Below are positions 31,715 through 48,205 of a stretch of DNA of 64,000 bases, piece by piece; positions within the stretch are counted from its first letter, which is position 1; each line of letters opens with the position of its first letter. Source of the DNA: Desulfatiglandales bacterium (lineage in GTDB: Bacteria; Desulfobacterota; DSM-4660; Desulfatiglandales; Desulfatiglandaceae); assembly GCA_963666345.1 (NCBI GenBank), contig OY762721.1, positions 1,312,001 through 1,376,000 on the forward strand. The letters run 5' to 3'. The position numbers were made by a program, and so were the translations under genes. The notes under the pieces were generated by a model. It saw only the letters and a program-made list of their open reading frames with translations. It made no database searches and had not been told where the DNA came from.

Positions 31715-32082
31715 CAACATAGACCAGACACCTTAAAAGATGCTCTCCTTCCTCAATGGCAGTAGCATGATAGCGGTCTTCCCAGAAGGCACCCTTTCTA
31801 TTTTTCCTTTGATTGTATTCCTGTCCTGTTCTGCCGGCTATCAATTTGATGGATTTCGGGATAACATCCCTTTCTCCATCATCTGATGCTATCAGGTGTA
31901 TATGGTTTGATGTTACAGCGTAATTAAGGATAGTTAACCCGTAACGTTTTCTTGCCTGGTATAGCCAGTAAAGCCAGCGACGTCGGTCTCTGGCAAACTT
32001 AAGCAGAAATTCCCTTTTATGGCATCGGTGTGTTATATGCCATGTATAACCAGGGATAAAATGCCTTTTTGCTCTTGCCATC

Positions 32083-32321
32083 ACCACAAACCTATAATGC
32101 CCTTTTCGGTATCAAAAATCGCAATATAGGCCTTATTTCAGGCCCTTTTCAGACTTGTTTCTAAGTTATTTCAGAATGTTATCGTGGCCCGACCCCCAAT
32201 CAACCACAAACCTATAATGCCCTTTTTGGTATCAAAAATCGCAATATAGACCCGATTTCAGACCCTTTTCAGACTTCTTTCTAAGTTATTTCAGAATGTT
32301 ATCGTGGCCCGACCCCCAATC
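32083..32321. repeat. Tandem duplication, 120-bp period
   Basis: 32083-32201 and 32203-32321 are near-identical. Confidence 0.9.
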
Positions 32322-32344
32322 CTACAGGATGTTGGGCAGATCTG

Positions 32345-32587
32345 TTACAATAAACTTAACGTAATTGTATTAATTTCAAAAGGTTTCCCAGTCTCTCCGA
32401 AATGGCTCTTAACCTTATCTGAAAGAGAGATGGGAACTTTATGGCCGTGAATAATTTTATTCGCACCATTTCTGGAAATTCTATAATGAGTACATTTGGG
32501 ACAGATCACGTGTTTGCCGTCGTATCCATTGGGCCGATCAATATTTTTAGTCCCAGCATCATTACACAAAAAACATTTTTGATTCAT
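32345..32587 (-). CDS. Small Zn-finger-like cassette protein
   Basis: CFLC...CPKC; GGAGG RBS. Confidence 0.65.
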   Translation of the reverse strand: MNQKCFLCNDAGTKNIDRPNGYDGKHVICPKCTHYRISRNGANKIIHGHKVPISLSDKVKSHFGETGKPFEINTITLSLL

Positions 32588-32623
32588 TTTTTACCTCCGA
32601 AAAGGGACTATCCCAATACACTC

Positions 32624-33103
32624 CTAAGGTTGATTAAGATAATTATCAATAACCTCCCTATGACCGTTAAATTTGGCATATAGTATTTCCTTAAGACCTC
32701 TTAGCCCTGGTTCCGCAACGAGCCTATCGAATTCAGATGCCTTAAGATTCAATTGCCTGCAATATTTGTCTAAAACTGTTTGTGGAGCTATTCCACCATG
32801 CATTTTTGCTACCTCTTTTGTGGCTTTTGATCTTGGAACACCCGAAAAATGAGTCATATAAACGACTTGTAAAATGTGCTCAAGAGCTTTAGGTGTGCCG
32901 GCAGGAACTGGGGGAAGATTATGACTTGCCGCCTTTCTTGGTTTGAATTGAGTAAGATTTTCACTGCTGGTTTTCCCAAATAAAAGCCTACGTAAAACAT
33001 CATTAGGTGTGTCAGTGAATGGTTCAGCTTGACTTTTAAGATAATCTAATACCTCTTGATCTATATCGATCGTGTGCATACGCATAACAGTACCTCCTCG
33101 CAA
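32624..33103 (-). CDS. Cassette protein with SeqA-N/RHH-like N-terminus
   Basis: TIDIDQEVLDYLKSQAEPF.DTPNDVLRRLL. Confidence 0.7.
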   Translation of the reverse strand: MRGGTVMRMHTIDIDQEVLDYLKSQAEPFTDTPNDVLRRLLFGKTSSENLTQFKPRKAASHNLPPVPAGTPKALEHILQVVYMTHFSGVPRSKATKEVAKMHGGIAPQTVLDKYCRQLNLKASEFDRLVAEPGLRGLKEILYAKFNGHREVIDNYLNQP

Positions 33104-33196
33104 AAATAAAAGGTTAAAGTGATCGGCGCGCCACTGTTATGCGTAATATACTTCAGTAATTACAGTCTGTCAAGTTTTTTAAGTGTAAATATTTGT

Positions 33197-33244
33197 GCCC
33201 AACGCGAAAATCACCGGTTTATCCGGTGCATTTTCTGGTTAGGA
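33197..33244 (-). other. attC site (short)
   Basis: + strand GCCCAAC..GAAAATCACCGG TTTAT CCGGTG[C]ATTTTC..GTTAGGA. Confidence 0.8.
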
Positions 33245-33291
33245 ATTAAGGATTGTATCCCAGGAATTCTCTGAATTCCCGTACGTTAATT

Positions 33292-36200
33292 TCAATCTTT
33301 TTTGTGTAACTTATTTATGAAATCTGACAAGAGGTCTGCTCTCAGGAACTCTGCATTAATTCCTTCGGACGGGAAGCTGGTCCACCAATGACTGTTCCTG
33401 CTCAGGTATATTGTTATTATTTTGGGCGGGTTCTTTTCGTCTATAGGCCATCTTAGGGCTCGGGCGATTTCAGCCAGATGTTTCTTTAGGTAATCTTCCC
33501 GTCTGTTGATTTGCTCGAAATATCCTTGTGACTTGCCTGGTATGCCGAAAATTTTCTCTCTCAGCCTTCTTGCGTCTTTGAGAGAGTGCGCTTGGAGCAG
33601 GTCTTTGCATTCGATATTCAGGATGATGTTTTTATCTTGATGAAATGACAAAACGTCGTAATCGCCCAGCTCTTGAGGATGATGCCCTTTGGGTTCAAGC
33701 TTATCCAGCTTTAGGTTTTTTTGCGCAAGTGGCGTATGCCTTTTGACTATTTCAAACGTCTTGTCCGCTAAGGCATCCTCGATAAGCTTTTTTTCCGAGG
33801 CTATTACCTGTTCTATATTTGGTGACTGTAAATCTGTTGGCAACCTACCCTCCGGGATAGTTGCTGACCATAGGAGTGCTGTCCTTCTTGCGGAATATGC
33901 TCCCCAATGGAACTGATTTCCCACTTTGATTATCGGCCGCAGATTGTATCTTGCATACCTCTTCCTGTATTCCCATACCGGCAAGTCTGAACAGGGCTCT
34001 TCTTGTCCTAATACTCGGATAACATCTTCCTTCTTTAGCGTCAGGAAATCGATTATCCGGCCGGCCTCTTCTAAGCTACAATCTGGAATGTTTTTGCTAA
34101 ATATTTCGATTGTTTCCTCAGAAGCGGCTTTGTAGCTCGTGCTTTCTTCAACATCCTTGGCAAATGTTGGCCAGAAAGACAGAATTTGTAAGGCATTTAC
34201 CATATTCTTCAGACTAAATCCTAAGTCTGCGATGCTTGCCTTATCGATTTCGTTTAATAGTTCCTCAACAGGTCTTGGTGATTCCACCCGGTCCTCCGAT
34301 TTTCCGATAAGGCCTAATTCGAGTTGTGCCATCATTTCAGAATATTGTTTCTCCTTGGTTTCCATTTCGGGCTCGTACATTACCTCTAAAAGAAAGTCTC
34401 TGTCGAGCTTCATCCCAACCGGCAGGATTCCATAATGGAGGTTATCGCTTGCGCTGTACAACACATGAAGCCAGTCTATCAGCGCGATAAAATACTGGAA
34501 TTGGGTCCTGGTTATTTTTTCTTTTCCTTTCGGCTCTATCTGCACTAATTTTTCTATAATGTACCTATAGTTTTTGTGGGTCTTTATGAATTCCGTGTGC
34601 TTCTCCGCGTGTCTTACTTCCGGCTGGTAGTCTGTTTCGTGTTGTAACGAATGTTTGATTCTGTGTCGGTGGCGCTCGTTTTCCGCATTAAGAGCATCAA
34701 TTCTTGTGAGCAGAAATGGGATGGCGGTTGTAAAGTCATATTTTGACACCTCGGAGTTTATTTCGGCCACTATTGCATCTCTTAGCCTGTTAATGATTGT
34801 TTTGGCTTCCTCAAGATGGTATTCGCCTTCCTGGACGTCTAGCTGGCTTGCAATTTCCGCTATCCTTTTCTTGGCCCTTTTGAAATGCGCTTTTTCCGGC
34901 TCTAAGGGGCTTATGAATTCAGGAAAACTTGCCGGTTTATCTACGGCAAACATCTTGAAACGTGGCTTTCCCGGTTTGGTTTTTTCAAGCTTTTCTATTA
35001 TGCTTCCAATTTCTTTGTCTGGAACCAGTTCGTCTAATCGGGCTAAAACTTCCAGCAGGATATCGACTTCAAGAGAGCAATCCGTGGCGTCGTTAAAGGT
35101 CTTTCGTATTTCTTCGTCATTAAAAACGACTCTTACACCTATAGTGCCTTTTCTAATCCTGGATAGGTCAGAACACCAATATTTTTCGATTCCACAAAGA
35201 TGCCGTACATGTTTGAATTTTTCGTCCTTAACCACCATTGATAATGGGAAAAATATTATATGCAGTTTTTCTGGTCTCTTAAAAAACGCATGTTCAGTAA
35301 AGATTGACTCTCTTCTTGACATGGAATCTTCGAGGCATTCCATCAATAAATTAGACAAGCTACCTTGAGGGTAATCCATAGCATCGAATGGCGCAGTCAT
35401 AGAAACTTCAGTTGGACCGATTCTTGAATATAACGCCGAGCCGAAATATCCTCTTGCCACCAGTCTAATTCTTGTATCAGTCTCCTTTTTGACCTTCCAG
35501 CTTTGTGGATGTCCGAAAAATCCATGCTCCGGAAATTCTTCCCAAAATGAGGATAGGGTCTTGTAGCGAAGGCTCGTACCCCAATGAGGGTCAATACTTA
35601 TAAAGTCTGGCTCAAGGGCTCCTCCTATTAGTATTCCCTGAGAGTCCTTGTAGGAGGCGAACTTATCGAGCATAGTGAATCCGGTCTGTAGCTTAGGTTC
35701 TATTTCGTCCAAATATTCGAAAAAGTCAGCGAGAGTTTCTGGGTTTTCAAGCTCATCTATCATCCCGAGAAATGAATCGAGGAACATTACCCTGCCAGGC
35801 AAATCCACAGGTATTCCAAAAGATCGTATTTGGGTAGATACTTGTGGAATAATTATTAAGATTTCAGGTTGTAGAGTTCTCTTTTCGTCTTCTGAACGAA
35901 ATTGCACATTTTGCCTGTCTAAGTGGAGAGCCAGTGTTGCCGGTTGTTGGCTGGCTAGTTCTATAGCCTTGTTGAGTTCCGGCGCTATTTTTCTGAATTT
36001 TTTTTCCAGTGAATTTGAAGACACTTTCGGGGTTAAAAGGTAGATGAGTATGAGCTTGTTTCCAGCGATGAAGGCTGTAGTGAAAATTATATTATGCGGC
36101 TTTCCATCTTTTTCTACGGCGCTTGCCACGTAGAATATATTGTCTTTTGGGATACGGTATTTAACGTATTGATGCAATCTTGCGCCAATTTTAAAAAGAA

Positions 36201-37104
36201 GCCGTCGCTTGTCAGGTTCGATTTTATCGATATGATTTCTATATGTTTCTGACCATGAATCGAACAGTATCGCGGAGTACCGCCTTGGAAGTATAGGATA
36301 ATATCTTGCTTTGTTTTTGATAAAGAATGCGGGAATTAGAGTCCCATCGAATATGCTATTGCCAAAAGTTTCGTATTCCAGTGAATCTCGGGGGTATTCA
36401 CCGAGGTTTAGAGTATAAAGATTTTTGAACTGAGCAGGCTCCAACTCATCTGGTACGAATGCTGTATAAAATGTTTTAGCGTTTTCCCAGAATTCTTTCG
36501 GCGGTATCTCTATATGACCTGGTTCGATGTCTAAAGTCTTACTGTCCGGCTGTGCTGTTATCCCCTCAATTATGGTTTCTTGAAGGGTTAAGCAATATCT
36601 GAGCTCCAGGGCCGGGTCTCTATGGCAATGCCTATAATATTCTTCCTTGTATGGTCCGTAAACCATCTGGAATATTTCCAGGTATTCGTTCACGTTCGAC
36701 AACTCATTCCCGTAGAACATCTTATAATTTTTTTCATCATGATGGAATTTTATCTCTCCCCAGTCAGGTTCAGGGATGTAGTCCTCCAATGATGGGAATG
36801 CTGGAAGGAGATTATATATCTTTTCGAGGAAGGCTGAGAAGCCTTCATAAGTATTTATGATGTCTTCCGTGGAAAACTCTTCTGGCATAACAGTCGCGAA
36901 TATAGCAATAAGGAGCTGATGCTTTACTTGACTTGCGATATTCGGGAGCCACATATTTGAAACAAATAAGGATATGGCGACATCCTCAACGCTGTATTTG
37001 CGAAACTCGCTTCTGATACTCTCGACGCAATCACTGAAGGCCGCTTTTTCCTTTTCAGGATCTATGTCAAACATTCTTCTTATCGCTTCAATTCCATTTT
37101 CCAT
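33292..37104 (-). CDS. 1270-aa cassette protein with C-terminal PD-(D/E)XK-like nuclease motif
   Basis: Long ORF ending just before an attC; GDYDVL...NIECK. Confidence 0.75.
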   Translation of the reverse strand: MENGIEAIRRMFDIDPEKEKAAFSDCVESIRSEFRKYSVEDVAISLFVSNMWLPNIASQVKHQLLIAIFATVMPEEFSTEDIINTYEGFSAFLEKIYNLLPAFPSLEDYIPEPDWGEIKFHHDEKNYKMFYGNELSNVNEYLEIFQMVYGPYKEEYYRHCHRDPALELRYCLTLQETIIEGITAQPDSKTLDIEPGHIEIPPKEFWENAKTFYTAFVPDELEPAQFKNLYTLNLGEYPRDSLEYETFGNSIFDGTLIPAFFIKNKARYYPILPRRYSAILFDSWSETYRNHIDKIEPDKRRLLFKIGARLHQYVKYRIPKDNIFYVASAVEKDGKPHNIIFTTAFIAGNKLILIYLLTPKVSSNSLEKKFRKIAPELNKAIELASQQPATLALHLDRQNVQFRSEDEKRTLQPEILIIIPQVSTQIRSFGIPVDLPGRVMFLDSFLGMIDELENPETLADFFEYLDEIEPKLQTGFTMLDKFASYKDSQGILIGGALEPDFISIDPHWGTSLRYKTLSSFWEEFPEHGFFGHPQSWKVKKETDTRIRLVARGYFGSALYSRIGPTEVSMTAPFDAMDYPQGSLSNLLMECLEDSMSRRESIFTEHAFFKRPEKLHIIFFPLSMVVKDEKFKHVRHLCGIEKYWCSDLSRIRKGTIGVRVVFNDEEIRKTFNDATDCSLEVDILLEVLARLDELVPDKEIGSIIEKLEKTKPGKPRFKMFAVDKPASFPEFISPLEPEKAHFKRAKKRIAEIASQLDVQEGEYHLEEAKTIINRLRDAIVAEINSEVSKYDFTTAIPFLLTRIDALNAENERHRHRIKHSLQHETDYQPEVRHAEKHTEFIKTHKNYRYIIEKLVQIEPKGKEKITRTQFQYFIALIDWLHVLYSASDNLHYGILPVGMKLDRDFLLEVMYEPEMETKEKQYSEMMAQLELGLIGKSEDRVESPRPVEELLNEIDKASIADLGFSLKNMVNALQILSFWPTFAKDVEESTSYKAASEETIEIFSKNIPDCSLEEAGRIIDFLTLKKEDVIRVLGQEEPCSDLPVWEYRKRYARYNLRPIIKVGNQFHWGAYSARRTALLWSATIPEGRLPTDLQSPNIEQVIASEKKLIEDALADKTFEIVKRHTPLAQKNLKLDKLEPKGHHPQELGDYDVLSFHQDKNIILNIECKDLLQAHSLKDARRLREKIFGIPGKSQGYFEQINRREDYLKKHLAEIARALRWPIDEKNPPKIITIYLSRNSHWWTSFPSEGINAEFLRADLLSDFINKLHKKD

Positions 37105-37409
37105 AAAGACTGCTACTCGTAATCAATTTGTGAATTTTGGGGACAGTTTTTTAATTAATATCTTGTCCCCAGAATACCTTTATCTGCAGCGGCCGCAGTG
37201 CTTCGGAAGGGAAGCAGTGGAGATCACTGCTCGTTATTTCGTTCCGCGCCGAGGGTAAACCGTTGAAACAGGCCGAGGACTGTTGTCCCTTCTCTCGCGA
37301 AGGTGCTCCAGGGCTCGGAAAGGGTGATCTCCACCATGCCCGTTTGCCGCAGTGCCAATGACGGAGGCTCTAACGGTATTCTTTTAATGTCAGACCCTTC
37401 GCCCGGCGG

Positions 37410-37537
37410 AATCAACGAAAAGCTAACCAGCGGCGGGATGATTGCCAACCCTCTTGGGAAAGCTCAAACTCTGGTTAACTGCTAATTCATACAAAATGCC
37501 CCGGTTTTAGCCGTCTGAGTTAAGCGCCTGGTTAGGG
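37410..37537 (-). other. attC site (long)
   Basis: AATCAAC..CTAACCAGCGGC...GCCGTCTGAGTTAAG..GTTAGGG; R'' matches the cassette start GTTAGGG. Confidence 0.65.
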
Positions 37538-38587
37538 TGAATCGCTGGCGAGCCACTTGAATAACAATGCCGCCGCCAAGGATGCACTTGCGGCTACGAT
37601 CCAAGAAACGAGCGTTGGCCAGACTCGTTCAAAAGCGCTTGCCTTTGTCTTGGTCAGGTTGATTTTTGCATTTGGGATAAACTTTGAGTGAATCCAAAGG
37701 AACGCTGTCAAGAGTATAAAAATTGATGCTACAAATATTCCACGATTTGCCAAAGAATCAATATCGGGGATGGCCACCAGCATAGCCAAAAAGATGAATT
37801 GATTTAAATTAAGACCAAACTTTTTGTAGGTAGTTACAAGTGTGCTTTCGTTCTTTTTTATTGCAGACGCTAGCGCATTTGCTTTACCGATAACCCAAGA
37901 TTCTCGAACCCCTTGGACCCTAACTTCATTAACGCCAAATGATGATACTTCGACGGTTACCACTTTGTTTACACCATGCGCGTCAGGCTCTTGAACAAAT
38001 ATTTTAAGATATTTTAGCTCGGCAGCTTCTGGTGGATTCTTAAGAAAATCATCGGCGTATTTCGTAACATCTGGGCCACCATCATTATACGTAACGATGG
38101 CTCTTCCTGAATCGAAATCAACAAGCACGTGTCCAATTAATTTTCGAATATCCTCTTCATATAGTATTAAAGCTCCGAGTTGTATATTCTGGTTATAAAA
38201 TTGCTCTGGCACACCAGCAAGATTCTCTGCTGCTTCTTTTTGCCCTTCACCATGAGGGTATAGCGAAAACAACCCCCCTGTCCCTAGTGTTGACTCCCAT
38301 TTGCCTTTCAAATAGCCCTCGGGCGTGAGGGTTCCTTGAATCGTTAGCTCACCAAGCTCTACTCCCTCCCGAGATTGTTTTGGCTGACCTATAAGAGAAA
38401 TGGTCTCTCCATATTCACCCTCAACATGGTACACAGCAGCGCCATATTGGTCATCCAAGAAACGAAATGTCCCGGACAATTTTTCCTTGTCTTCATCAAG
38501 TGCCAAGAAAACGTTTCCGGTATTGGTCCCATAGACGCGGCCAGCCCACAGTTTTCCTAATGTGCTCATTCTTGGATATCTCCTCAC
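37532..38587 (-). CDS. Cassette membrane protein (beta-rich N-terminus, 2-3 C-terminal TM helices)
   Basis: ORF bounded by attC sites; hydrophobic C-terminal segments. Confidence 0.75.
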   Translation of the reverse strand: MRRYPRMSTLGKLWAGRVYGTNTGNVFLALDEDKEKLSGTFRFLDDQYGAAVYHVEGEYGETISLIGQPKQSREGVELGELTIQGTLTPEGYLKGKWESTLGTGGLFSLYPHGEGQKEAAENLAGVPEQFYNQNIQLGALILYEEDIRKLIGHVLVDFDSGRAIVTYNDGGPDVTKYADDFLKNPPEAAELKYLKIFVQEPDAHGVNKVVTVEVSSFGVNEVRVQGVRESWVIGKANALASAIKKNESTLVTTYKKFGLNLNQFIFLAMLVAIPDIDSLANRGIFVASIFILLTAFLWIHSKFIPNAKINLTKTKASAFERVWPTLVSWIVAASASLAAALLFKWLASDSP

Positions 38588-38588
38588 A

Positions 38589-38645
38589 CCCTAACGAATT
38601 AATCAGCGGCCCGCTTTTTGGGTCCGCTGAATTTTCATGTTAAAT
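38589..38645 (-). other. attC site
   Basis: CCCTAAC..ATCAGCGGCCC..GGG[T]CCGCTGA..GTTAAAT. Confidence 0.85.
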
Positions 38646-38647
38646 TC

Positions 38648-39346
38648 TTACTTTAATGACGGCATAGGCTTATGTTTAATCACTAAATATAGAACATCAG
38701 ATTGGAACCATGGAGACGTTGTTTTTTGATCTTTAGCGTCAAATGTTTCTTCCACGTGTGAGATTCCAATTAAAGATAAGGCGTCACTTAACCTTTTTGC
38801 ATCACCTAACCGTGTTCCTTCAAATATTCCAATTGAAACGCCATATTCGTTCTGCGTGTAATTCTTTATCCGCATCGTTTGCCAATGTGCCTCACGCAAA
38901 GCCACATCAAAATCATTCGCGAAATCTGAACTCTCCGCATCCATCAATGTTGAGACGATTGCGACAGTTCCCGGATCATCAGTGAGAAGCTTAATCAACT
39001 TCTCACTTTGAGCATTTGTCAAACGACGTGGCTTGACTTCGCTTTCAAGTTTATTTGCTTTAGCCTCCGTCCGTGCTAACTGATCTGATTGTGTCACAAT
39101 AAAATTTTGAAGCTCATCGACTTTCTTGTTGGAATTGTAGGTTTCCATCGAATTTATAACCATAAGCATCAATGCAAATACCGGGAGTCCCCAATTTACT
39201 AAAAGAAATTCCAAACCAGTGCGCCATTTTTCTTTTCCAATTTTAGCAGATTTGAATGCAACCCATCTCTTCCCATGATCGAAATATGCGGGAAGAAAAG
39301 AAATAAAGCAAAGAGCTATGTTTAAAAATAATGATAATTTCCACAT
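38648..39346 (-). CDS. Cassette hypothetical protein (two N-terminal hydrophobic helices, coiled coil)
   Basis: ORF bounded by GTTAAAT / ATTTAAC cores. Confidence 0.75.
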   Translation of the reverse strand: MWKLSLFLNIALCFISFLPAYFDHGKRWVAFKSAKIGKEKWRTGLEFLLVNWGLPVFALMLMVINSMETYNSNKKVDELQNFIVTQSDQLARTEAKANKLESEVKPRRLTNAQSEKLIKLLTDDPGTVAIVSTLMDAESSDFANDFDVALREAHWQTMRIKNYTQNEYGVSIGIFEGTRLGDAKRLSDALSLIGISHVEETFDAKDQKTTSPWFQSDVLYLVIKHKPMPSLK

Positions 39347-39364
39347 TTTTAATTTCTAATTTAA

Positions 39365-39515
39365 CGGCCCCGCGGATCAGCGGCGGGCGAACGCGCGAGC
39401 TTGCTCGCGTGGATGACCGACCGCTGCATCCGCTTGATGGCCGGCGCGCAGCGCCGGACAGCATGCGGATGATAATACGCGGGGCCGATGGCACGGCGCG
39501 TAGCGTCCGTGCCAT
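39365..39515 (-). repeat. 151-bp gene-less cassette, copy 4 from attI
   Basis: Near-identical to the three other copies; G|ATGGCAC...GGGGCCG|TT junctions. Confidence 0.95.
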
Positions 39516-39580
39516 CATCGAGATCACCTGCCGCTATGTAGCGCAGCGGAGTAGCGGTCAGGTGGAGCGCCTTGTTAGCC
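39516..39580 (-). other. attC site (R' converted to GATGGCA by the 151-bp unit)
   Basis: TCACCTG CCGCTA...TAGCGG[T]CAGGTG..GTTAGCC. Confidence 0.85.
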
Positions 39581-40211
39581 CAGTGACGGTTCTATAAAGA
39601 CTTGCTATTACTGGAATAAATATCGGCGGTGTCAGCTTTAGAACTATTTGTCTAATCGATTTTTTATCGGCTTTCTGCCATTTTGCGTACTTTTCTGTAA
39701 ACTCTGTTAAAGAAGGCTTATCATTTTTAAAGCCAATTCCTACTATTGTATGAGGAAAACTCTCATTACCTTGAAATCCCACGAAAGACTTATCGAAGGG
39801 CTTCAAAATTGATTTGAATGCTTCAGGTGTGAATCGCCAATAATCATAGGGATGATCGTGAATAGGAAAATCCATAACAGAACTAATTACTGCAATTCCA
39901 TTAGGTTTAAGTATTCGATGTATCTCTTCTAATGCCTTACGGGGATATTCAACATGTTCCAGTGTATCAAAACACAAAACTGTTCCAACGGATTCAGAAG
40001 GGATGTCAATCGCATGTAAATCCAATATCTTATCAACGCCTAGGCCTTCTCGCATGTCACAACCAATATATTCTTTATTGCGGAATAACGGACGCAAATC
40101 CGCAAACCCTATCTGCTCAGGTACTTGAAATGAACCAAATTCATATATAGGTTCAAGGGTTGGTAACGTTATGCTTACTATGCTTGCAAAGTCTTTAACG
40201 TTCTGTCTCAT
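39558..40211 (-). CDS. Cassette SAM methyltransferase (type 11-like)
   Basis: EFGS, YIGCD..G.GVD, TLEHV..P, RILKP.G, H..P.DYWRFT; stop lies inside attC. Confidence 0.85.
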   Translation of the reverse strand: MRQNVKDFASIVSITLPTLEPIYEFGSFQVPEQIGFADLRPLFRNKEYIGCDMREGLGVDKILDLHAIDIPSESVGTVLCFDTLEHVEYPRKALEEIHRILKPNGIAVISSVMDFPIHDHPYDYWRFTPEAFKSILKPFDKSFVGFQGNESFPHTIVGIGFKNDKPSLTEFTEKYAKWQKADKKSIRQIVLKLTPPIFIPVIASLYRTVTGLTRRST

Positions 40212-40235
40212 ACTAATTCCTCTTTTTCGGGCTAA

Positions 40236-40386
40236 CGGCCCCGCGGATCAGCGGCGGGCGAACGCGCGAGCTTGCTCGCGTGGATGACCGACCGCTGCAT
40301 CCGCTTGATGGCCGGCGCGCAGCGCCGGACAGCATGCGGATGATAATACGCGGGGCCGATGGCACGGCGCATAGCGTCCGTGCCAT
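40236..40386 (-). repeat. 151-bp gene-less cassette, copy 3
   Basis: As the other copies; hairpin-loop variant A. Confidence 0.95.
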
Positions 40387-40442
40387 CGCCGATCTTCAGC
40401 GGGCGCGGCTTTTTGCGATCCGCTGCAAGAGCATGGTTATGA
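40387..40442 (-). other. attC site
   Basis: CTTCAGCGG...CCGCTG[C]AAG..GTTATGA; matches the cassette start GTTATGA. Confidence 0.85.
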
Positions 40443-40482
40443 AATAATCAGTGTTACTTGCTCAAAACGCTCTTTCCCATTC

Positions 40483-41400
40483 TTATTCACTTTGAAGGTC
40501 GATACCCCAATCCGGTAACCGTGACTCCACGTAGTTTCGAAGAAGAGTGTATCGAAATCCCAGCTTAGAGTTCCGAGCTTCTTTATGTTTAATAGATTCA
40601 TGAATGATAAAGTTGTAAGCAATGCGAACATGTTCGACGTGCTTCTGGAACGTGGATCTGATATCAGACCCCAGCCAATCAAGAAACGTGCACCCGTCAT
40701 CATCTACCGCAAGAAGTCCCAGTGCTCTCGTAGCGAGGTCAGCGTGTGCCTGCTCCTCTGCTGCGGTTATCCCTTCCAGGCCCGAGATGGACTGAAGATA
40801 GCGCACAAGCTCCTCACCGACAACTACTCTAGGGTACTGAGCCACCTTGCTTTCCAGCCTGTAAGCTCTAGCGAGGGCTGGACCATACACTTCGCCCTCT
40901 TCGATGTCCATTGCTAGACCGAGTTCGATTCCGCCCCGAATTGTCCAAGAATGCACCAGGCATGAGAGAAACGTCATGGCTGTTGCAGCCAAAACCCCAT
41001 AAATAGCGTGACATTGGAATTTACCTACGTCGTTACGCAGCGGAATATGGACTATCAGTGAATCAGAAAAATGCCGATAGAAGACGGGGGTACTCCTAAA
41101 CTGTTTCAGAAGTTCCTTTTCCAAAGGCGAAAACGCGCTCTCGTCTGAACCCCCTTCAAGGAATGGCTTGATACTGGCACTAAAGAAGCTTTGCAGGCCA
41201 TAAAGTGGTCTGTAAAGTTCGGCCACTTTCTGCTTAAAGGCGGCCACCTCTTCTTGGTTCTCGACATTAGGCAATACCGTCATTTTGCTGAGCACATCCT
41301 GCTGTCCAAGTAGGTCCAGAAATGCCACTACATACCATGCCATATGTTTCGGTTTCTGGTTCTTCGGGTCTTCTGTTCTATTCGCATCCTGATTCATCAT
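40483..41400 (-). CDS. Cassette class III nucleotidyl-cyclase-like protein
   Basis: VAFLDLLG, FSDS, IRGG, YGPALARAY.LES..A.YPRV. Confidence 0.7.
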   Translation of the reverse strand: MMNQDANRTEDPKNQKPKHMAWYVVAFLDLLGQQDVLSKMTVLPNVENQEEVAAFKQKVAELYRPLYGLQSFFSASIKPFLEGGSDESAFSPLEKELLKQFRSTPVFYRHFSDSLIVHIPLRNDVGKFQCHAIYGVLAATAMTFLSCLVHSWTIRGGIELGLAMDIEEGEVYGPALARAYRLESKVAQYPRVVVGEELVRYLQSISGLEGITAAEEQAHADLATRALGLLAVDDDGCTFLDWLGSDIRSTFQKHVEHVRIAYNFIIHESIKHKEARNSKLGFRYTLLRNYVESRLPDWGIDLQSE

Positions 41401-41436
41401 ACATTCCTGACTTCTGGCCTACTTTCTATTTCATAA

Positions 41437-41587
41437 CGGCCCCGCGGATCAGCGGCGGGCGAACGCGCGAGCTTGCTCGCGTGGATGACCGACCGCTGCA
41501 TCCGCTTGATGGCCGGCGCGCAGCGCCGGACAGCATGCGGATGATAATACGCGGGGCCGATGGCACGGCGCGTAGCGTCCGTGCCAT
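41437..41587 (-). repeat. 151-bp gene-less cassette, copy 2
   Basis: As the other copies; loop variant G. Confidence 0.95.
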
Positions 41588-41668
41588 CGTTAAAATAACT
41601 GGCAAATTAAAGCGGTGCGGCGATAGGAGCGCCGCTTTAATTTGTCCAAGTTGATTTTCTTGTTATGT
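41588..41668 (-). other. attC site
   Basis: AACTGGCAAATTAAAGCGG...CCGCTTTAATTTG[T]CCAAGTT..GTTATGT; matches the cassette start GTTATGT. Confidence 0.85.
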
Positions 41669-41740
41669 GTTGATTGCATCATCCCTGCCAGACTTTATCA
41701 TCAAAAAGCACAATAGCTGCTTACGGCCAAAATCGGACAT

Positions 41741-44700
41741 TCAGAATCTATCCTCCATAAAATCGGATTTTTTCTCAGCTTCCATCATTTTCCGATTACC
41801 TTGCACATGCCTTTCAATATAAAGCTTATGTTGAAGAAGGTCTGCGGTGTTGCACAAGGGCAAAAGCGATTCCCAATATTCAACCCGCGCTTGATACATT
41901 GGCACCGCACTTCCTGAGCCACCCCAAGTATCAGGCTCCAATGCCAACCTCTCAAAATCTTCATAACTTTTATTGTTTTCAAGAAACAACTCTATGAAGC
42001 GCTTCCGCCTTTCCGGAGCAAAATGCGATATTGGCTTAAATATTAAAGCCATTAAGTAGGAGTCTTGTGCTTGCTCCTGAATTATTGCCACCAGAAATTC
42101 ATCCTGCTTTGCTACAGCTTCCGGCGGGCATTTTTTGTTGCCATGAACACAGAAGAGCCGTTCCATATAGCTTCCTAATATATATCCCCGCCCTTTTTCA
42201 TGTTGCAGTAAGCGCTCTATTGCACGCGACATAATGGTATCACAGTCATTGTGATGCCACAGAAACGCATAATCACGTGTGTCTGCATAACTGCGCGCCC
42301 ATTCATCACCATCATATACCCGATCTGTATACTCCAGTATAAAATCAGGATTTACGGACAGTATGCGGCCAAGCGTCGCGCCGTTATAATCAGCATTTCT
42401 ATCCACCTTTATGTGAACCATGTATGCTCTTTCCAAAGAGTCTTGATGACCGTCGAAAAGATCAAAAATTTGTTTATTAGCCTCCGAAAGCGGATTGAAG
42501 AGAGAGTCCAATCCGTGGCCAAAAAAATCATCTGTCTCTGCTTTTTCTACAATTATGTTTGTAACATTCACGACAACACCACTGTCTTGCGCTGTATAAT
42601 TTAGCAGATAATCGTAATCGTATGGCAGTTCGCTGCGTTCAGCATTCCGGTAGAGTTCATACAAATTTTCTATGGTTTCAGAGTTAATATCCTCGGGTGA
42701 TAGGCATAGATAGTAACCAAAAAGCCATTGCCGTTTGGCCGGATATTCAGGCTCTTCAACAATCTTAAGCGTTTGTTTAGCGCCGCACGTTTTCAGCAAC
42801 TTATCGACGATTATAGCAGGTTGCTGTATTGCCAGAGGGTTTCCCAATTTCAAATATTCCTGGATTACCTGTACATAAAGAGGGCCGTCTCTTTCTGCAA
42901 GAGCCAGTAGGGCCTGCAGGATTCCTGTCTTAACTTCGTGCGTTTCGTGACTGCCGCTTATATAGGACATTATTTCTATAAACTGCTGAATAAGCCGTAG
43001 ATAGTCATCAAGACCAAATTTGCTTGTATAGTCCTTTATTTTTTGTTTTTTGAATTTTTCAAATTCACGAAAGCCCATATCTCCTGCATCGGAGTAATCA
43101 AAAGACAGCAATTTGTATATTTCATAAATTCCATTACGGAAGTTTTCGGAAAGCTTGTCCATATCAGGAATATCGCGGAGGTCGAGCATGGCAAGATAAT
43201 CCTGTACAATAAGGCAATGTGAAAAATTATCCGGGTCGAGCGTGTCTCTAATAAACGGAATTACAACCTCTGCATCTTTGACTGCGATCTCTTTTTGTGA
43301 CAGGTAATAGCCCGAATTGCTGTAGCTTTTCAAAACGCCCAAAGCTTCTTTTTGAAAAGAGAAGTTTTGATACAGATGAAAAATACCGTTCCAAATAGCC
43401 CTCCGTAGCTCGAAAATCGGTTCAATTGCTATGAGGTTAAACTGATGTATGGTTATAGAGTTTTTTGACGCCTCGTGGCTTTCAAACCGTGTGGGCATAT
43501 ATTTTTTTGCAACAGCAAGAAACAGCTTCGAAAACAATTCATTCCTGCCCTGATCAGCTTTTTGCCAGAGAGTTTCAATCACAATCCTTTGAATGATATA
43601 TTCCCGAAGATGAGAATGGTGCGTAAATCCAAATCTTTTTGTTAGGAGATTAAGAAATTGGGGAACAGCTTGCGGTATTTTCTCCACATAATTAAAGGCC
43701 AATTCAAGCGCAGAACGGAAAGTGCCCTTTTCATCTGCCTGTTTAAAGAGACCCAAAAGGTCTAGAAGAGGGTGCAAATCTGTATCAGGGTTTTCCGCCG
43801 CCCAGTCTATGGAAGCGAGTTCAACTGGTTTTGCCTCTACTGCTTCAATGCAGTCACGGATATAAACAAGAGCATCCGATTGAAGCAAAAACCAGAATAG
43901 CCGGATGAGCGAATGCAGATTGTTTGTATCCCCGCTATTCATTAAATCGCGCCTTTTCTTTTGTATATGAGGACGCATCTGCGCTGTGAGCCTTGCGAAG
44001 TCAAACGCGTTCAAACAGGGATAAATGGCATCTCTAAAACGGTTAGTTTGCCCAGGAAAGAAATTGTCTATGAGGGTAGTAAAGTCGAGAATCTCATCTT
44101 TGAAAAAGCAAAGATAAAATAAATAAGTGACAAAAACTTGATCACTGATTTTTACAACTTCACGTTCATAAATATTAACAACCTCACAGTCGTGAAGATG
44201 TTGGACCGCTTTCCAGAAATCTTCAGGAGCAATTCCAAAAATATTTTGTATGAGTTGCATCAATTCTGTGTTGGAGCGATCTATAGTCCTGAAAAAAGAA
44301 ATGATTCCTGCAACCTTCAAAACATTCTCATCCTGCAGGTTTCTAAGGTCATTAGATATGGAGGCAAAATATTCATCATATAGGACAGAGACATCCCTGA
44401 TGCTGTCAAAACTACCGTGTTTGACCGCTACTTTTGCTGCCATGATTGCAAGCCGTGGGTTGCCCCCGGAAATCTCAGCAATTCTGTCCAGAAATAATGG
44501 GTTTGTTATGTTGTATTGCTCCTTAACCAAATCCTTTATTTCTTGCGCCTGCATCGGTTTCAACTCTATTTCAGGGGTTGCTCCCAAGGGTTTTGCGGCC
44601 TGGTTTATTTTGTCACGTGCGTAATCGCGCACGGTTGCGATCACTTTTATCTGCTGATCTTGTCTTTGGTTTTGGATAAGATCGACAACATAATCAAACC

Positions 44701-45511
44701 GTGTGATACGGTTTGCATCATCCACTAAAATCAGAAATTGGCCGGGCTGTGAAAAATGAGTGCGTATATCTTCGAACAGGTCGGGTCCCCTGTTATATAT
44801 GCACCGCGTTTCAAAATCCGGATGTGCTTCCTCAAAATCTTGAAGAGCCTGCAGGCCAAGGCGGGATTTACCAACACCAGCTTGGCCTGATAAAACCACA
44901 AGGTTATTGTTTACCAGTCCTTCCAAAACTTGTTGTATTTCCTGCTCCCGGAAATGAAAATCTGTATCCAATGGTGTGGTAAGCTGATTTCTTCCTACAT
45001 TCGCTACAAAATCGCCCGGCTCCAAAATTTGCCCTGTATCAATGCTAATGCCCAGAAAAGCCTGCGCTAGGCCCGGATACTTTTGATAGAGGTCAAAGGA
45101 GATACTGCCTATTCCAAAAACCTGAATATTTACCCCTTTTTGCTTGCCTTCATCGTAAAGCTCTTTCTCTTCTTCAGGTGAAAGAAGAGATGTATGGCAG
45201 AAAACAATTTCCTCAATCTCAGTTAATAGAATGCCAGTTTTAGTCTCATCAAGGCATTTACTCAGATCGCCTTTTAATTTAGACGCAATATTCGTTTGGT
45301 CTGTGGTAAATTCTGCAAAAATAAGTTTGCCATTTTTCTGTCGTATATAAGTATCTGGTGTCCCTTTTCGTACTTTATTTGCACCGATCACAGAACCGAT
45401 AGGGTTGATATTGTTATAGCCTTTTTTGTGTATATAACTGTCTGCCAGTTTTTGGAACTCTCCGCATCCAATTTCTTTTAGGGCCTTTTCTATCTGGTTA
45501 ATCTTAGACAT
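41741..45511 (-). CDS. Cassette REase-like + STAND-type P-loop NTPase with long helical C-terminus
   Basis: EFQ..A, GTPD..AEFT N-terminus; GQAGVGKSR Walker A; LILVDD Walker B; TVR; GGNPRLA. Confidence 0.8.
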   Translation of the reverse strand: MSKINQIEKALKEIGCGEFQKLADSYIHKKGYNNINPIGSVIGANKVRKGTPDTYIRQKNGKLIFAEFTTDQTNIASKLKGDLSKCLDETKTGILLTEIEEIVFCHTSLLSPEEEKELYDEGKQKGVNIQVFGIGSISFDLYQKYPGLAQAFLGISIDTGQILEPGDFVANVGRNQLTTPLDTDFHFREQEIQQVLEGLVNNNLVVLSGQAGVGKSRLGLQALQDFEEAHPDFETRCIYNRGPDLFEDIRTHFSQPGQFLILVDDANRITRFDYVVDLIQNQRQDQQIKVIATVRDYARDKINQAAKPLGATPEIELKPMQAQEIKDLVKEQYNITNPLFLDRIAEISGGNPRLAIMAAKVAVKHGSFDSIRDVSVLYDEYFASISNDLRNLQDENVLKVAGIISFFRTIDRSNTELMQLIQNIFGIAPEDFWKAVQHLHDCEVVNIYEREVVKISDQVFVTYLFYLCFFKDEILDFTTLIDNFFPGQTNRFRDAIYPCLNAFDFARLTAQMRPHIQKKRRDLMNSGDTNNLHSLIRLFWFLLQSDALVYIRDCIEAVEAKPVELASIDWAAENPDTDLHPLLDLLGLFKQADEKGTFRSALELAFNYVEKIPQAVPQFLNLLTKRFGFTHHSHLREYIIQRIVIETLWQKADQGRNELFSKLFLAVAKKYMPTRFESHEASKNSITIHQFNLIAIEPIFELRRAIWNGIFHLYQNFSFQKEALGVLKSYSNSGYYLSQKEIAVKDAEVVIPFIRDTLDPDNFSHCLIVQDYLAMLDLRDIPDMDKLSENFRNGIYEIYKLLSFDYSDAGDMGFREFEKFKKQKIKDYTSKFGLDDYLRLIQQFIEIMSYISGSHETHEVKTGILQALLALAERDGPLYVQVIQEYLKLGNPLAIQQPAIIVDKLLKTCGAKQTLKIVEEPEYPAKRQWLFGYYLCLSPEDINSETIENLYELYRNAERSELPYDYDYLLNYTAQDSGVVVNVTNIIVEKAETDDFFGHGLDSLFNPLSEANKQIFDLFDGHQDSLERAYMVHIKVDRNADYNGATLGRILSVNPDFILEYTDRVYDGDEWARSYADTRDYAFLWHHNDCDTIMSRAIERLLQHEKGRGYILGSYMERLFCVHGNKKCPPEAVAKQDEFLVAIIQEQAQDSYLMALIFKPISHFAPERRKRFIELFLENNKSYEDFERLALEPDTWGGSGSAVPMYQARVEYWESLLPLCNTADLLQHKLYIERHVQGNRKMMEAEKKSDFMEDRF

Positions 45512-45567
45512 CAGAAGTTTATCCTTTCAAACGTCCGCTATGGGTCGAAAAAGGACATTCCCAAGAC

Positions 45568-45625
45568 ACATAACGATTGAACTGTGCGGCGCGTTTTTTG
45601 CGTCCGCACCAGTGACAGGTTAGCC
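45568..45625 (-). other. attC site
   Basis: ACATAAC..ACTGTGCGGCGC..GCG[T]CCGCAC[C]AGT..GTTAGCC. Confidence 0.85.
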
Positions 45626-45631
45626 AAATTT

Positions 45632-46522
45632 TTAATCAACTCCCCATATTCTTTTACGTGAGTTGATATAATTTAATAACCGGAAATATCTTGAGGATAG
45701 TTTATCATTTTCAGCCTTTACGTATTTTTGATGCTGAGAGACCACAAAATCATATGCAAGATTTACTACTTCTGTATCAATGGAATTATCTGCCGTTTCC
45801 TTGGATTTTTCCCCCATAAAATCGAGCATGAAACGTCCATCTGTGTCTCTAATAATCATTTCTCTACAAAATTTGGCCATATCTTTTGCCACCAAACCAA
45901 GTCGAGTTTTACACTGTTGATTTTCAACCCATAACAAATAATTTATGAGTTCTTTTCCGACAACAAAACGAGGATACTCAGCTAAATTGCTTTCGATAAA
46001 ATATGCACGTTCAAGCGCTGGCCCATATATTTCCTGTCCTTCGATTTTTGTTCCAATCCCTACATCTAATCCAGCCCGCAAAGCAATAGTGGCAGCTAGG
46101 CTGATAAAACCAATACCACAAGTTGCTACAAGTGCAGAATAAACGCCATTAATGGCAGTACAATTCTCATCGTCACTCATTAGTGGTACAGCGACTATTA
46201 TTGAGTCAGAAAAACTATAAAAATAAACCTCAGATTTTTGTGAAGCTATAAACTCTTCACGATGTTCAGGTGGCACAAGATCGGTATTTGGAATATGCGA
46301 ACTGGAGGCTTTAAAGAAATCACTAAAAGCATTTCTAAGTCTATCAACTTTACCTACTGTTTGGCGTATTTTATCTAAAAAGACCTCTTTTTCCTCCTCA
46401 TTTGTAGGCAAATCTCTAATCTCACGCAATATGCTTCTTTGCCCAAGAATATCGAGAAAAACAATAAGATAGTGTTGAAATACCAAGTCACTTTTATTTT
46501 TTTGATTAATTTTAATATTCAT
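45632..46522 (-). CDS. Cassette nucleotidyl-cyclase-like protein (homologue of 40483-41400)
   Basis: VFLDILG, FSDS, LRAG, YGPALERAY.IES..A.YPRF. Confidence 0.7.
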   Translation of the reverse strand: MNIKINQKNKSDLVFQHYLIVFLDILGQRSILREIRDLPTNEEEKEVFLDKIRQTVGKVDRLRNAFSDFFKASSSHIPNTDLVPPEHREEFIASQKSEVYFYSFSDSIIVAVPLMSDDENCTAINGVYSALVATCGIGFISLAATIALRAGLDVGIGTKIEGQEIYGPALERAYFIESNLAEYPRFVVGKELINYLLWVENQQCKTRLGLVAKDMAKFCREMIIRDTDGRFMLDFMGEKSKETADNSIDTEVVNLAYDFVVSQHQKYVKAENDKLSSRYFRLLNYINSRKRIWGVD

Positions 46523-46537
46523 ATTTTTATTTGCTAA

Positions 46538-46688
46538 CGGCCCCGCGGATCAGCGGCGGGCGAACGCGCGAGCTTGCTCGCGTGGATGACCGACCGCTGC
46601 ATCCGCTTGATGGCCGGCGCGCAGCGCCGGACAGCATGCGGATGATAATACGCGGGGCCGATGGCACGGCGCATAGCGTCCGTGCCAT
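46538..46688 (-). repeat. 151-bp gene-less cassette, copy 1 (first position, at attI)
   Basis: As the other copies; loop variant A; no attC upstream. Confidence 0.95.
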
Positions 46689-46778
46689 CTAGTGAGTAGT
46701 GAGAATTATTTCCCGTTTAACAGTAAACGCGACTTTTTTCTCGTTTATTCAATATCCCGGAAGTAATTCTCGTTTATT
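46689..46778 (-). other. Putative attI region
   Basis: Crossover G at 46689 between the first cassette and intI; direct repeats TTCTCGTTTATT x2 and IR GAGAATTATTTCCCG / CCGGAAGTAATTCTC. Confidence 0.6.
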
Positions 46779-46810
46779 GAGTCCTCTTGCACCTCTGTGG
46801 AACAAGCCTT

Positions 46811-46927
46811 TGCACAAAAACCTGTGCATGATTGCCCTAAAAATTGTGCAAATTCGCCGATCATATTTGCTGTCACCTTCTTAAAGTGCTGAATTTTATG
46901 GACATTCTTATCTGGCATGTTTCATGC
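46811..46927 (+). promoter_or_regulatory. Candidate sigma54 promoter plus enhancer sites upstream of intI
   Basis: TGGCAT-N5-ATGC 46913-46927; TGCACA-N6-TGTGCA 46811-46828 and TGCCCT-N6-TGTGCA 46833-46850. Confidence 0.5.
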
Positions 46928-47011
46928 GTTCTTTTTCTGCATGCGCATGCTGCTAAGAGGTTAATATTACATAATATCACGCCATAAAGCTCGTATATTG
47001 GATTTATTGAA

Positions 47012-47980
47012 ATGAATACCACCTCTAAACCCAAAAAGCTGCTCGACCAGGTCAGGGACGTGCTTCGAGTAAAGCACTACGCATACAGGACCGAGAAAAC
47101 CTACATATTCTGGATTCGCAGATTCATCCTTTTTCATGAAAAGAAACACCCTTCGGAAATGGGCTCAAAGCAAATCCAGGATTTTTTGACACACTTGGCA
47201 GTGGAACGTAACGTCTCCGCCTCCACCCAGAACCAAGCTTTGAACGCTTTAATTTTTCTGTATAAAAAGGTCCTCCGCATTGATTTAACGGATCCCATTG
47301 AAGCCGTCCGCGCCAGACGGCCGACCCGACTTCCGGTCGTGCTTTCCAAACCGGAGGCATTTAAGATCATCGACCTCATTTCCGGCGAGTCTCAACTCAT
47401 CGTCAAGCTCCTCTACGGAAGCGGGCTTCGCCTGATGGAATGCATGCGGCTCCGTGTAAAGGATATCGACTTTTCAATGAACCAGATCCTTGTTCGTCAC
47501 GGTAAGGGCGGAAAGGACCGTGTGACAGTGCTCCCGGCGAATGTCACAGACTCTCTTCAAATGCATTTGAAAAAGGTCAGGGCCATTCATGAAGATGATT
47601 GCAGACATGGATTTGGCCATGTCAATCTTCCCGGGGCTCTCGCCAGAAAATATCCCAATGCCTCTAGTCAATGGGCGTGGCAATTTGTTTTCCCGTCCAG
47701 ATCTCTTTGCAAAGATCCACGCTCCGGAGAAATCCGGCGGCATCACCTGCACGAAAGCTGTGTAAGAAAGGCCCTTAAAAAGGCTGTAACTCTTGCCGAC
47801 ATCCATAAGCAAGTCGGATGCCACTGCTTCCGGCACAGCTTTGCAACTCATCTCCTTGCAGACGGTTACGACATCCGCACTGTGCAGGAGCTGCTCGGGC
47901 ACAAAGACGTTTCCACAACAATGATTTACACGCACGTCCTGAACAAAGGCGGCCGTGCCGTTCGGAGCCCGATCGACTGA
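47012..47980 (+). CDS. intI: Integron integrase
   Basis: [30 protein letters not shown], integron-specific insertion (LP.ALARKYP.A...W.WQFVFP), [24 protein letters not shown]. Confidence 0.97.
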
Positions 47981-48205
47981 GCTATTTGCTGAAGGTCTCA
48001 AAGAGCTTTCTTATTTAAAATCCACGTCATAGACAACAAAAACCCCACCTCTCTATCTGAGAAACGGGGTCTGATTGCCTCATGGGTGCCTCCGGTTATG
48101 TTTATTTAATGCAGATAAGCAAAAATAATTTAACGCTTGCCATGTTGATATTTTTATCTGTTTTTGTCAAGTTTTACACTTACTTGATGGACCATTCGGA
48201 GATGG

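Follow-up and report, generated by a model that had tools for sequence, protein, structure and literature searches.

A self-complementary, cargo-less unit at the crossover sites of a Desulfatiglandales chromosomal integron: a probable selfish cassette

A 151-nt, almost fully self-complementary unit, present four times in one chromosomal integron of a Desulfatiglandales bacterium, is best explained as a cargo-less, selfish and insertion-biased integron cassette, made of a long attC site and at most 16 further nucleotides, which hold a GCGNAGC mini-hairpin. We put the probability of this reading at about 0.7. The evidence for it is the unit's anatomy, its copy number, its insertion points, a rule that its junction triplets follow, covariation among its relatives and a bias for one strand, all of which can be seen directly in the sequences compared.

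The host array and the anatomy of the unit

The locus at about 30.8–47 kb of the window (the whole stretch of 64,000 nucleotides that was analysed) is a chromosomal integron, in which the plus strand of the window corresponds to the bottom strand of the attC sites. Its intI gene (47012–47980, + strand) encodes an integron integrase of 322 aa that scores 471.6 bits against TIGR02249 (cut-off 265) and matches Pfam PF00589 and PF13495; the closest relatives of this IntI, with 88–94% identity, are found in Desulfobacteraceae MAGs. The array itself is AT-rich and consists of co-oriented minus-strand genes with short hairpins between them, which read on the plus strand as AAC, 8 nt, stem…stem, 9 nt and GTT. 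A canonical unoccupied attC with exactly this layout lies at 38593–38641 (+), and another canonical unoccupied site in the array, at 45572–45621 (+), served for comparison. Array cassettes without the unit have complete attCs of 49–76 nt. The canonical sites were read by eye: a strict energy-density scan gave only two sites, and a looser scan three true and five doubtful ones but not the site near 33199.

The first copy of the unit occupies 39365–39515 of the plus strand, i.e. the bottom strand of the integron, between an AA↓C crossover at 39364/39365 and an AT↓C crossover at 39515/39516 (the arrow marks the point of exchange). It stands out as a GC-rich island (~70% G+C) amid two AT-rich minus-strand genes. 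The initial annotation had given its length as 151 bp, which is correct, and its span as 39365–39516, which amounts to 152 nt and is one base too long because the crossover C was counted twice.

The unit is closed by a helix, P1, in which 39365–39374 (the 5' arm) pairs with 39478–39487 (the 3' arm). The first C of P1 is the third base of the left junction triplet AAC (39363–39365), and its last G (39487) is also part of an internal triplet, GAT (39487–39489). Between the arms lies a variable terminal structure (39376–39476), which is absent from the 'mini' relatives described below and which itself has two arms, one at 39378–39426 with a hairpin at 39392–39411 within it, and one at 39427–39471 with a hairpin at 39441–39457 and a GCA loop. 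In the predicted fold the 3' arm carries unpaired A and ATA (39472–39477), and the 5' arm a single unpaired G (39375).

To the right of P1 is a terminal hairpin (39487–39516, + strand), which is the element's own attC R box (GAT…ATC) folded on itself over a 10-nt loop. The R-box halves that pair in it are 10 nt apart, whereas in ordinary cassettes a gene separates them. Within the hairpin there is an inner stem of 3 bp, a loop of 3 nt and a single bulged T, and the 10-nt loop includes the GCGNAGC mini-hairpin. Its last base, C 39516, is the crossover base of the target and part of the R' box of the upstream attC. The 9–10 bp that follow the core triplet are fully paired in the predicted fold, with no unpaired central spacer, and they covary among relatives. 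Read on the top strand, the unit begins with six bases where TTRRRY is usual and continues with at most 16 nt (the terminal-hairpin loop), the R'' box, the paired 9-bp stretch, the bulged region, the variable terminal structure of ~100 nt and a return arm that ends in the crossover G.

Folding as single-stranded DNA bears out the earlier description of the unit as nearly all self-complementary. The plus strand has a folding energy of −72.8 kcal/mol, whereas shuffled sequences average −43.3 ± 3.1 (z −9.67; none of 200 dinucleotide shuffles was as good), and the minus strand at −62.3 kcal/mol (z −7.20). As a circle, the form that the initial annotation had proposed to fold along with the bottom strand, the plus strand reaches −73.1 kcal/mol with 81% of its bases paired and the other strand −62.7 kcal/mol, so that in both forms the bottom strand folds better than the top. 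Every inverted repeat named in that annotation was found in place, namely 39365–39374/39478–39487 (10 bp), 39392–39399/39404–39411, 39427–39433/39465–39471, 39441–39447/39451–39457 and the terminal hairpin at 39487–39516. The 19-bp stem said to arise when the ends are joined is exact: 39507–39515 followed by 39365–39374 is the reverse complement of 39478–39496. A second candidate for a structured element, at 37105–37531, was rejected, as it is single copy with a z of only −1.83.

Copies, insertion points and junction triplets

The genome holds six copies of the unit, three at 100%, two at 99% and one at 86% identity. Apart from the copy described above, the window contains three more on the plus strand. 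Copy 2 (40236–40386; 99%, with a G>A change in a loop) lies between the start of the methyltransferase cassette, whose gene is at 39558–40211 on the minus strand, and the attC of a cassette for a 305-aa protein (gene 40483–41400). Copy 3 is at 41437–41587 (100%), and copy 4 (46538–46688; 99%, again with a loop G>A) occupies the first cassette position, directly at attI. The two copies outside the window are at genome positions 3098499–3098650 (100%) and 3278073 (86%).

The left junction is AA↓C in all six copies. On the right, three of the window copies run directly into an attC, with its 8-nt spacer and stems, and the fourth into attI. The three attCs, all on the plus strand, are those of the methyltransferase cassette (39514–39580; R' triplet now ATC, R'' GTT at 39574–39576), of the 305-aa cassette (40385–40438; ATC where unoccupied homologues have AAC) and of a 1256-aa cassette (41586–41661; R' triplet ATC; gene 41741–45511), while attI and the intI-proximal region extend over 46689–47011 (+), with C 46689 as the crossover base. 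As the plus strand has 226 AAC triplets in 30784–46760, the position of four units at junction triplets is not a matter of chance, and five near-identical copies together with one at attI imply a moving element.

Comparison with empty sites locates the right junction at the AA↓C position of unoccupied homologous attCs, although in the presence of the unit it reads AT↓C. All nine unoccupied homologous attCs from other genomes have AAC, 7–8 nt before the common L stem, where window positions 40385–40387 are ATC. A paralogous attI elsewhere in the same genome (locus L093, about 6900–7039) joins the methyltransferase cassette directly, without a unit; that cassette is a 99% duplicate, the first bases of which are identical to those after unit 2 in the window. 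In metagenome contig L141 this second, L093-type attI is occupied by the unit instead of the methyltransferase cassette, in another metagenome contig the unit sits at the homologue of the window attI with a different downstream cassette, and in a third (L139) an attC related to the 39514–39580 site is again to its right. The identical unit was found in five metagenome loci with four distinct contexts, and a contig from the sequencing run of another study has it next to yet another left neighbour. Within the genome itself, the copies have six different contexts. On the strength of these empty-site comparisons and of the changed neighbours in other samples, the unit is mobile on its own, with ends that coincide with the integron crossover.

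Contigs of three sequencing runs (DNA or unknown type) contained no joint across the unit, and a BLAST search of plasmid sequences with the unit and its flanks gave no match. In this genome, the second copy of the methyltransferase cassette has a group II intron at its crossover.

The same comparisons bear on a different reading, in which the unit is part of the gene cassette upstream, as an unusually long attC or an extension of one. Such a reading agrees with the fact that the unit abuts an attC-like hairpin or attI and ends with R-box-like triplets. However, the identical 151 nt abut three unrelated attCs, attI and one site that is not an attC (the 100% copy at 3098499–3098650 has no recognisable attC to its right, and an intI remnant is ~1.2 kb away), the attCs of unit-free array cassettes are already complete, and the methyltransferase cassette is known both with and without the unit. 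The unit-free methyltransferase cassette and the metagenome contexts contradict this reading, and we consider it scarcely credible.

Three triplets describe the junctions of a copy: L in the left flank, M between the closing helix and the terminal hairpin, and R, the last. They were taken from columns of the model alignment, in which 10 rows were re-registered by 1–3 bases under a fixed rule. Among 65 copies of the family, L/M/R is AAC/GAT/ATC in 31, AAT/ATT/AAC in 12, ATC/GAT/ATC in four, AAC/GTT/AAC in three and AAT/ATT/AAT in two, and the other 13 are decayed, cut by a contig end or odd. The triplet of the circle, composed of the first two bases of R and the last base of L, is complementary to M in 56 of the 65 copies, the rule being broken in nine, whereas M is complementary to L in 24/65 and to R in 43/65. 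In the circle form the core triplets of the unit are ATC/GAT and not AAC/GTT, with the complementarity of the two triplets kept.

A crossover between bases 2 and 3 explains the three junction types, and a cut at this point of a target AAC predicts the pairing of the circle triplet with M. With the cut placed there, the base-3 change of the AAT type stays on the left and the base-2 change of the ATC type stays on the right. Cuts before the triplet, after it or one base earlier within it were also considered, and each fails for one main type. Among the copies that break the rule are the 86% copy in this genome, which is AAC/AAT/ATT, and its relative in another study's run, which also ends in ATT. 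In this lineage the last base pairs inside the hairpin and so seems to travel with the element, which would not be expected from a strict AA↓C crossover.

Of the 63 distinct right flanks in the family, 27 fold as a single AAC…GTT hairpin with an energy of at most −8 kcal/mol, as against 12 of 315 control AAC positions. Many of the other right flanks are mutually alike and, by eye, attI-like. Integrase genes also lie beside the unit: intI is full-length in L119 and L108 and degraded in L104, L039 and L007, the match in L066 spans residues 8–191 only, and in L100 an intI-like gene directly adjoins the unit with its C-terminal part.

Relatives, covariation and the structured strand

BLAST found partial relatives of the unit in six of 61 related genomes, the window genome included. 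A first covariance model, built from six copies, was run on 105 genomes from 45 genera of the same bacterial family and matched in 20 of the genomes and 14 of the genera, with up to seven matches per genome, and a second model (R2, from 23 copies) matched in 18 of 151 genomes sampled evenly across the phylum. Among 27 loci encoding IntI relatives there were two unit matches, both in one Sulfurimonas MAG (Campylobacterales), where one unit is ~260 nt from intI; BLAST with the Sulfurimonas copy gave matches in five of 201 genomes of its order. Model R2 is blind to the copies of this Sulfurimonas genome (G275) genome-wide, both of which match in a single-locus search, and the order was surveyed by BLAST. 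The family thus delimited spans two phyla, and its members range from 'mini' forms of 56–61 nt, which lack the variable structure, to 188 nt. Several matches lie a few hundred bases from a contig end (e.g. in L023, L027 and L030).

Covariation across homologues, which the initial annotation had named as a check on the structure, is strong. In an alignment of 23 sequences, which was fitted to the model structure and is to that extent biased toward pairing, 92.3% of the cells are paired and 47 of the 55 pairs have changed on both sides, with none of 500 shuffles as high and slid controls at 33.5–42.4% paired; copies from one genome are not independent. A plain MAFFT alignment of six sequences has 21 of 55 pairs compensated. 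In P1, nine of nine pairs show changes on both sides among relatives.

The bottom strand is the structured strand. The terminal-loop motif GCGNAGC is found on it in 40 of 61 distinct sequences and on the other strand in one of 61, GC-GNA-GC occurs 73 times on the bottom strand versus 19, and G.T cells outnumber A.C cells by 122 to 53 among 2960. GCGNAGC is called an 'extraordinarily stable' DNA mini-hairpin in the portion of PMC13037366 used here.

A structure so stable and covarying, with each copy within ~40 nt of the next gene's start, could also be that of a structured RNA: a small antisense RNA, a processing site or 5'-UTR, or an element that insulates cassettes from one another or terminates transcription between them, the DNA-level features then being secondary. 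Some gene-less cassettes of Vibrio do carry promoters, according to the part of PMC11014356 drawn on here. The initial annotation had offered such an RNA, terminator or processing site as its alternative, and the searches speak against it. Rfam 15 has no match at any unit, with one sub-threshold chance match elsewhere in 28000–48000 (E up to 1), and a consensus scan of 38500–41800 returned four promoter-like (sigma-70-like) and three terminator-like sites, totals at the level of shuffled sequence, with none inside the three units of that interval. Moreover, the G.T pairs and the GNA triloops lie on the strand antisense to the cassette genes, the GCGNAGC motif is one of DNA mini-hairpins (in the same part of PMC13037366), and the junction triplet rule has no RNA explanation. 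We therefore judge a structured RNA improbable.

Some members of the family are dispersed. In one genome (G172), which has an IntI above the cut-off, ten unit matches are distributed over nine contigs, and the three examined are in ordinary intergenic DNA with ATC on both sides; the family is therefore not confined to arrays. Dispersal of this kind, hairpins at the ends, orientation-specific insertion by a fixed short motif and the absence of a target duplication are also what one would find in a non-autonomous element of the IS200/IS605 PATE or REP-like kind, transposed as a single strand by a Y1 (HUH) transposase with cleavage 3' of a short guide-paired motif, and the array does contain a RAYT-like Y1 transposase ORF at 31695–32087. 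However, this ORF scores 58.2 bits against NF047646, below the cut-off of 80, and the Y1 gene has 119-nt repeats of its own, which are unrelated to the unit. The left triplet is AAC or AAT by subtype and the last triplet is the opposite, ATC or AAC, and such opposite changes at the two ends fit only a cut inside the triplet. The targets, furthermore, are the R' boxes of attCs and attI sites next to intI, and the ATC-flanked dispersed copies fit insertion by IntI at GWT sites. A Y1-driven element is, in our estimation, highly improbable.

Spread, neighbouring cassettes and known elements

Taking the unit as a selfish cassette, we infer catalysis by IntI, a circular intermediate and an effect on excision. 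IntI would excise the unit as a circle, the bottom strand of which would form a dumbbell whose helix runs unbroken over 19 bp and includes an ATC/GAT core triplet that is perfectly paired. It would cleave between triplet bases 2 and 3 and insert the unit at AA↓C of attI or of another attC, and occasionally at plain genomic sites (GWT). The exchange of one strand would be resolved by replication with the donor copy kept in one daughter, and copies of the unit would therefore accumulate. Once inserted, the R-box halves, 10 nt apart, would snap into the terminal hairpin, which would make the R' box of the upstream cassette unavailable along with the unit's own R''. With both R-box parts masked, insertion would be favoured over excision, so that the element would accumulate as a parasite of the integron, and the unit should slow the excision of adjacent cassettes too. 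A more far-reaching version of this scheme, toward which we remain rather sceptical, makes the unit a recombination ratchet: a nuclease-resistant dumbbell attC as a circle, which would insert in a nearly one-way manner, multiply and freeze its neighbours.

An effect on neighbours was already part of the initial annotation, which had proposed that the integrated unit gives the upstream cassette an R' triplet mismatched with its partner and sequesters it in the terminal hairpin, as a recombination lock. For the three attC-adjacent units of the window the first statement is true: the occupied upstream attC carries ATC on the bottom strand (GAT on the top), which mismatches its GTT. As a mechanism, the mismatch applies to the ATC type but not to the AAT/ATT/AAC and AAC/GTT/AAC types. 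Because these two sister types make no mismatch, it is not a property of the family, and only the competition by the hairpin is. Sequestration of the upstream R' likewise agrees with the modelled structure, in which the ATC triplet and seven further bases would be held within the perfect terminal hairpin.

The cost of this competition was estimated from folding ensembles with DNA parameters. At the three attC-adjacent copies, the price of pairing just the two outer positions of the upstream R-box triplet is 6.0, 6.9 and 6.0 kcal/mol when the site is occupied, and 0.6, 1.2 and 0.5 kcal/mol in its reconstructed empty form. For the recombinogenic fold this would mean, roughly, a fall in probability from ~0.1–0.4 in the empty sites to ~1e-5 in the occupied ones, and pairing of the unit's own L with M costs 4.0–4.2 kcal/mol. 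In the portion of Loot et al. 2017 (PMC5371416) that bears on this, attC sites at such low folding values have low or undetectable excision. In terms of these models, a lock is a reasonable physical consequence of insertion. The folding energies in silico hence favour the lock as a physical effect, and it is locking as a selected function that is left without support.

That selected function would be one in which the host keeps the unit as a recombination lock or array stabiliser, freezing adjacent cassettes by R' mismatch and sequestration and by weakening the attC of the downstream cassette. It would draw on the energies just given, both for the occupied against the empty sites and for the unit's own L/M pairing, on the published decrease of excision at such folding probabilities (in that same part of PMC5371416) and on the three consecutive cassettes in 38648–41400, each separated by a unit. 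Yet the AAT/ATT/AAC and AAC/GTT/AAC types are without mismatch, copies that are 99–100% identical, with one at attI, are signs of recent movement rather than long-kept fixtures, and the identical unit has other neighbours in other samples. The methyltransferase cassette, though flanked by units on both sides, has still been duplicated elsewhere in the genome. The spread of the unit can be explained without selection at the level of the host, and we regard its maintenance as a lock as unlikely.

With an attC of ~145 nt, the unit is at or above the usual upper limit of attC length. A canonical attC is recognised by its AAC/GTT triplets, its bulged central spacer and its extrahelical bases, and exchanging its variable structure for three bases changes little, as set out in the part of Bouvier et al. 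2009 (PMC2727003) that was consulted. Within the bounds of that portion, the unit is like canonical sites (VCR, attC-aadA7) in being an imperfect palindrome with recombination at a triplet and a G after it, in the greater stability of its bottom strand, and in a terminal structure that is variable and dispensable, as the mini variants of 56–61 nt show; its unpaired bases are predicted to lie mostly on the bottom-strand 3' arm and may be comparable. It differs in its triplet, ATC/GAT (AAT/ATT in sisters), in a central spacer that is fully paired and in an R box of 10 bp. The unit has the context, the boundaries, the mobility and the strand bias of a cassette, and lacks the canonical triplet and the unpaired spacer.

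Gene-less cassettes have been described in Vibrionaceae superintegrons, where they measure 491–666 bp, with 335–515 bp outside an attC of 101–127 bp, and were studied for promoters (Blanco et al. 2024, PMC11014356), and also in an oral metagenome (PMC6557892), to quote the relevant portions of the two papers. Like these, the unit lies in an integron array, has no protein-coding gene and is bounded at the attC crossover. It is unlike the Vibrionaceae examples, as far as that portion details them, in having at most 16 nt outside the attC and no promoter-like site, and unlike gene-less cassettes in its non-canonical core triplet, its multiple copies and its membership of a covarying family in two phyla.

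Insertion of cassettes at genomic attG sites has been reported with an IntI1 consensus of GWT (preprint 10.1101/2022.09.11.507474, from the part relevant here). GAT is therefore accepted by IntI1 and within the reach of the integrase, and attG insertion fits the ATC-flanked copies in G172 and the copy at 3098499. That work, in the part referred to, used laboratory constructs with a canonical attC, whereas in the unit the non-canonical triplet is in its own site and is inherited.

The unit shares with IS200/IS605 PATEs and with REP/RAYT systems that it is short, non-coding, rich in hairpins, strand-specific, ssDNA-based and multi-copy. What sets it apart from them is its junction rule, its attC and attI targets and its position next to intI, which together point to a crossover by a tyrosine recombinase within the triplet. 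IS1111-attC insertion sequences also home to attC sites. The same is true of group IIC-attC introns, according to part of PMC3001079. Like both of these, the unit would be a parasite of arrays that sits at attC sites; the introns (with a ribozyme and reverse transcriptase) and the insertion sequences (with a transposase) encode their mobility, whereas the unit encodes nothing and appears to use IntI. In the literature covered in full text (subscription journals and bioRxiv supplements excepted), neither a family of self-complementary cassettes without cargo nor natural attC cores of the ATC/GAT or AAT/ATT kind turned up.

Integron cassettes are regarded as carriers of genes. A widespread cassette that has only its own recombination site means that the integron has selfish passengers. 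The three junction types provide a natural read-out of the cut made by the integrase, and they make it plain that cores other than AAC/GTT can serve. In practical terms, a multi-copy unit may break integron assemblies made from short reads, and a non-canonical core may be missed or misread by attC finders. Were the ratchet version to hold, it would show, for the first time from natural sequences, that cassette cores of the AT↓C and AA↓T kind are routinely cut by integron integrases. Inheritance of the base on the 5' or the 3' side of the cut would then follow exactly from the model of single-strand exchange. Should the hairpin, by masking the R box, reduce excision as the folding energies predict, these units would shape which cassettes stay in chromosomal arrays.

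A possible gene-less cassette, large ORFs and other genes in the array

Besides the copies of the self-folding 151-nt unit, the cassette array holds a non-coding, GC-rich stretch of 427 nt at 37105–37531, with one cassette gene on either side. It is present once in the genome and has no match in Rfam, and on the minus strand 37180–37420 folds only slightly better than shuffled sequences (z −1.83). This stretch could be another gene-less cassette. Two ORFs, at 33292–37104 (1270 aa) and 41741–45511 (1256 aa), are very large for an integron array. The latter has weak matches to STAND NTPases (nSTAND3, E 1.5e-5) and so may represent a cassette-borne defence gene. Also inside the array is an ORF for a RAYT-like Y1 transposase (31695–32087), which matches Pfam Y1_Tnp and scores 58.2 bits against NF047646, below the cut-off of 80 bits for that model; it is adjoined by two tandem repeats of 119–120 nt (32083–32201 and 32203–32321) that are 95% identical. 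The array's far end holds a HigB-like toxin gene paired with an HTH antitoxin gene (28634–29297).

A second platform and a shared attC type

The same genome carries a second integron platform, without an integrase, at approximately 6900–8230 of locus L093 (G000:C1:3094000–3106000). Its attI-like region is 87% identical to 46760–46884 of the window, and directly after it lies a duplicate (7063–7716, 99%) of the methyltransferase cassette whose gene is at 39558–40211 in the window. A group II intron is placed exactly at the crossover G of this duplicate, on the cassette strand, where it is matched at 7841–8038 (RF02001, 83.7 bits) and 8095–8225 (RF01998). A remnant of intI, 31 aa long, is located at L044:165–257. 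The attC at 40385–40438 of the window and those of loci L079–L092 form one sequence family. Within the bacterial family, more than ten genomes have it at 84–98% identity, in 19 match rows, so that as an attC type shared between genomes it can be compared with the VCRs of Vibrio.

Unusual members of the self-folding family

Family members also occur outside arrays. One GC-rich genome (G172) has 10 matches spread over nine contigs, and the three members examined (L095, L112 and L120) are sited in ordinary intergenic DNA, all with ATC on both flanks and at least two with small palindromes directly to their right. In G249, a different genome, an AAC/GTT/AAC-type unit directly adjoins an intI-like gene of which the C-terminal 113 residues are present (L100:1125–1666), and it looks as if the integrase gene either received the unit as an insertion or was truncated by it. 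Finally, an element in G194 (L096:377–531) is chimeric: the two halves match different subfamilies, one at the 5′ and the other at the 3′ side, a pattern that suggests recombination between family members.
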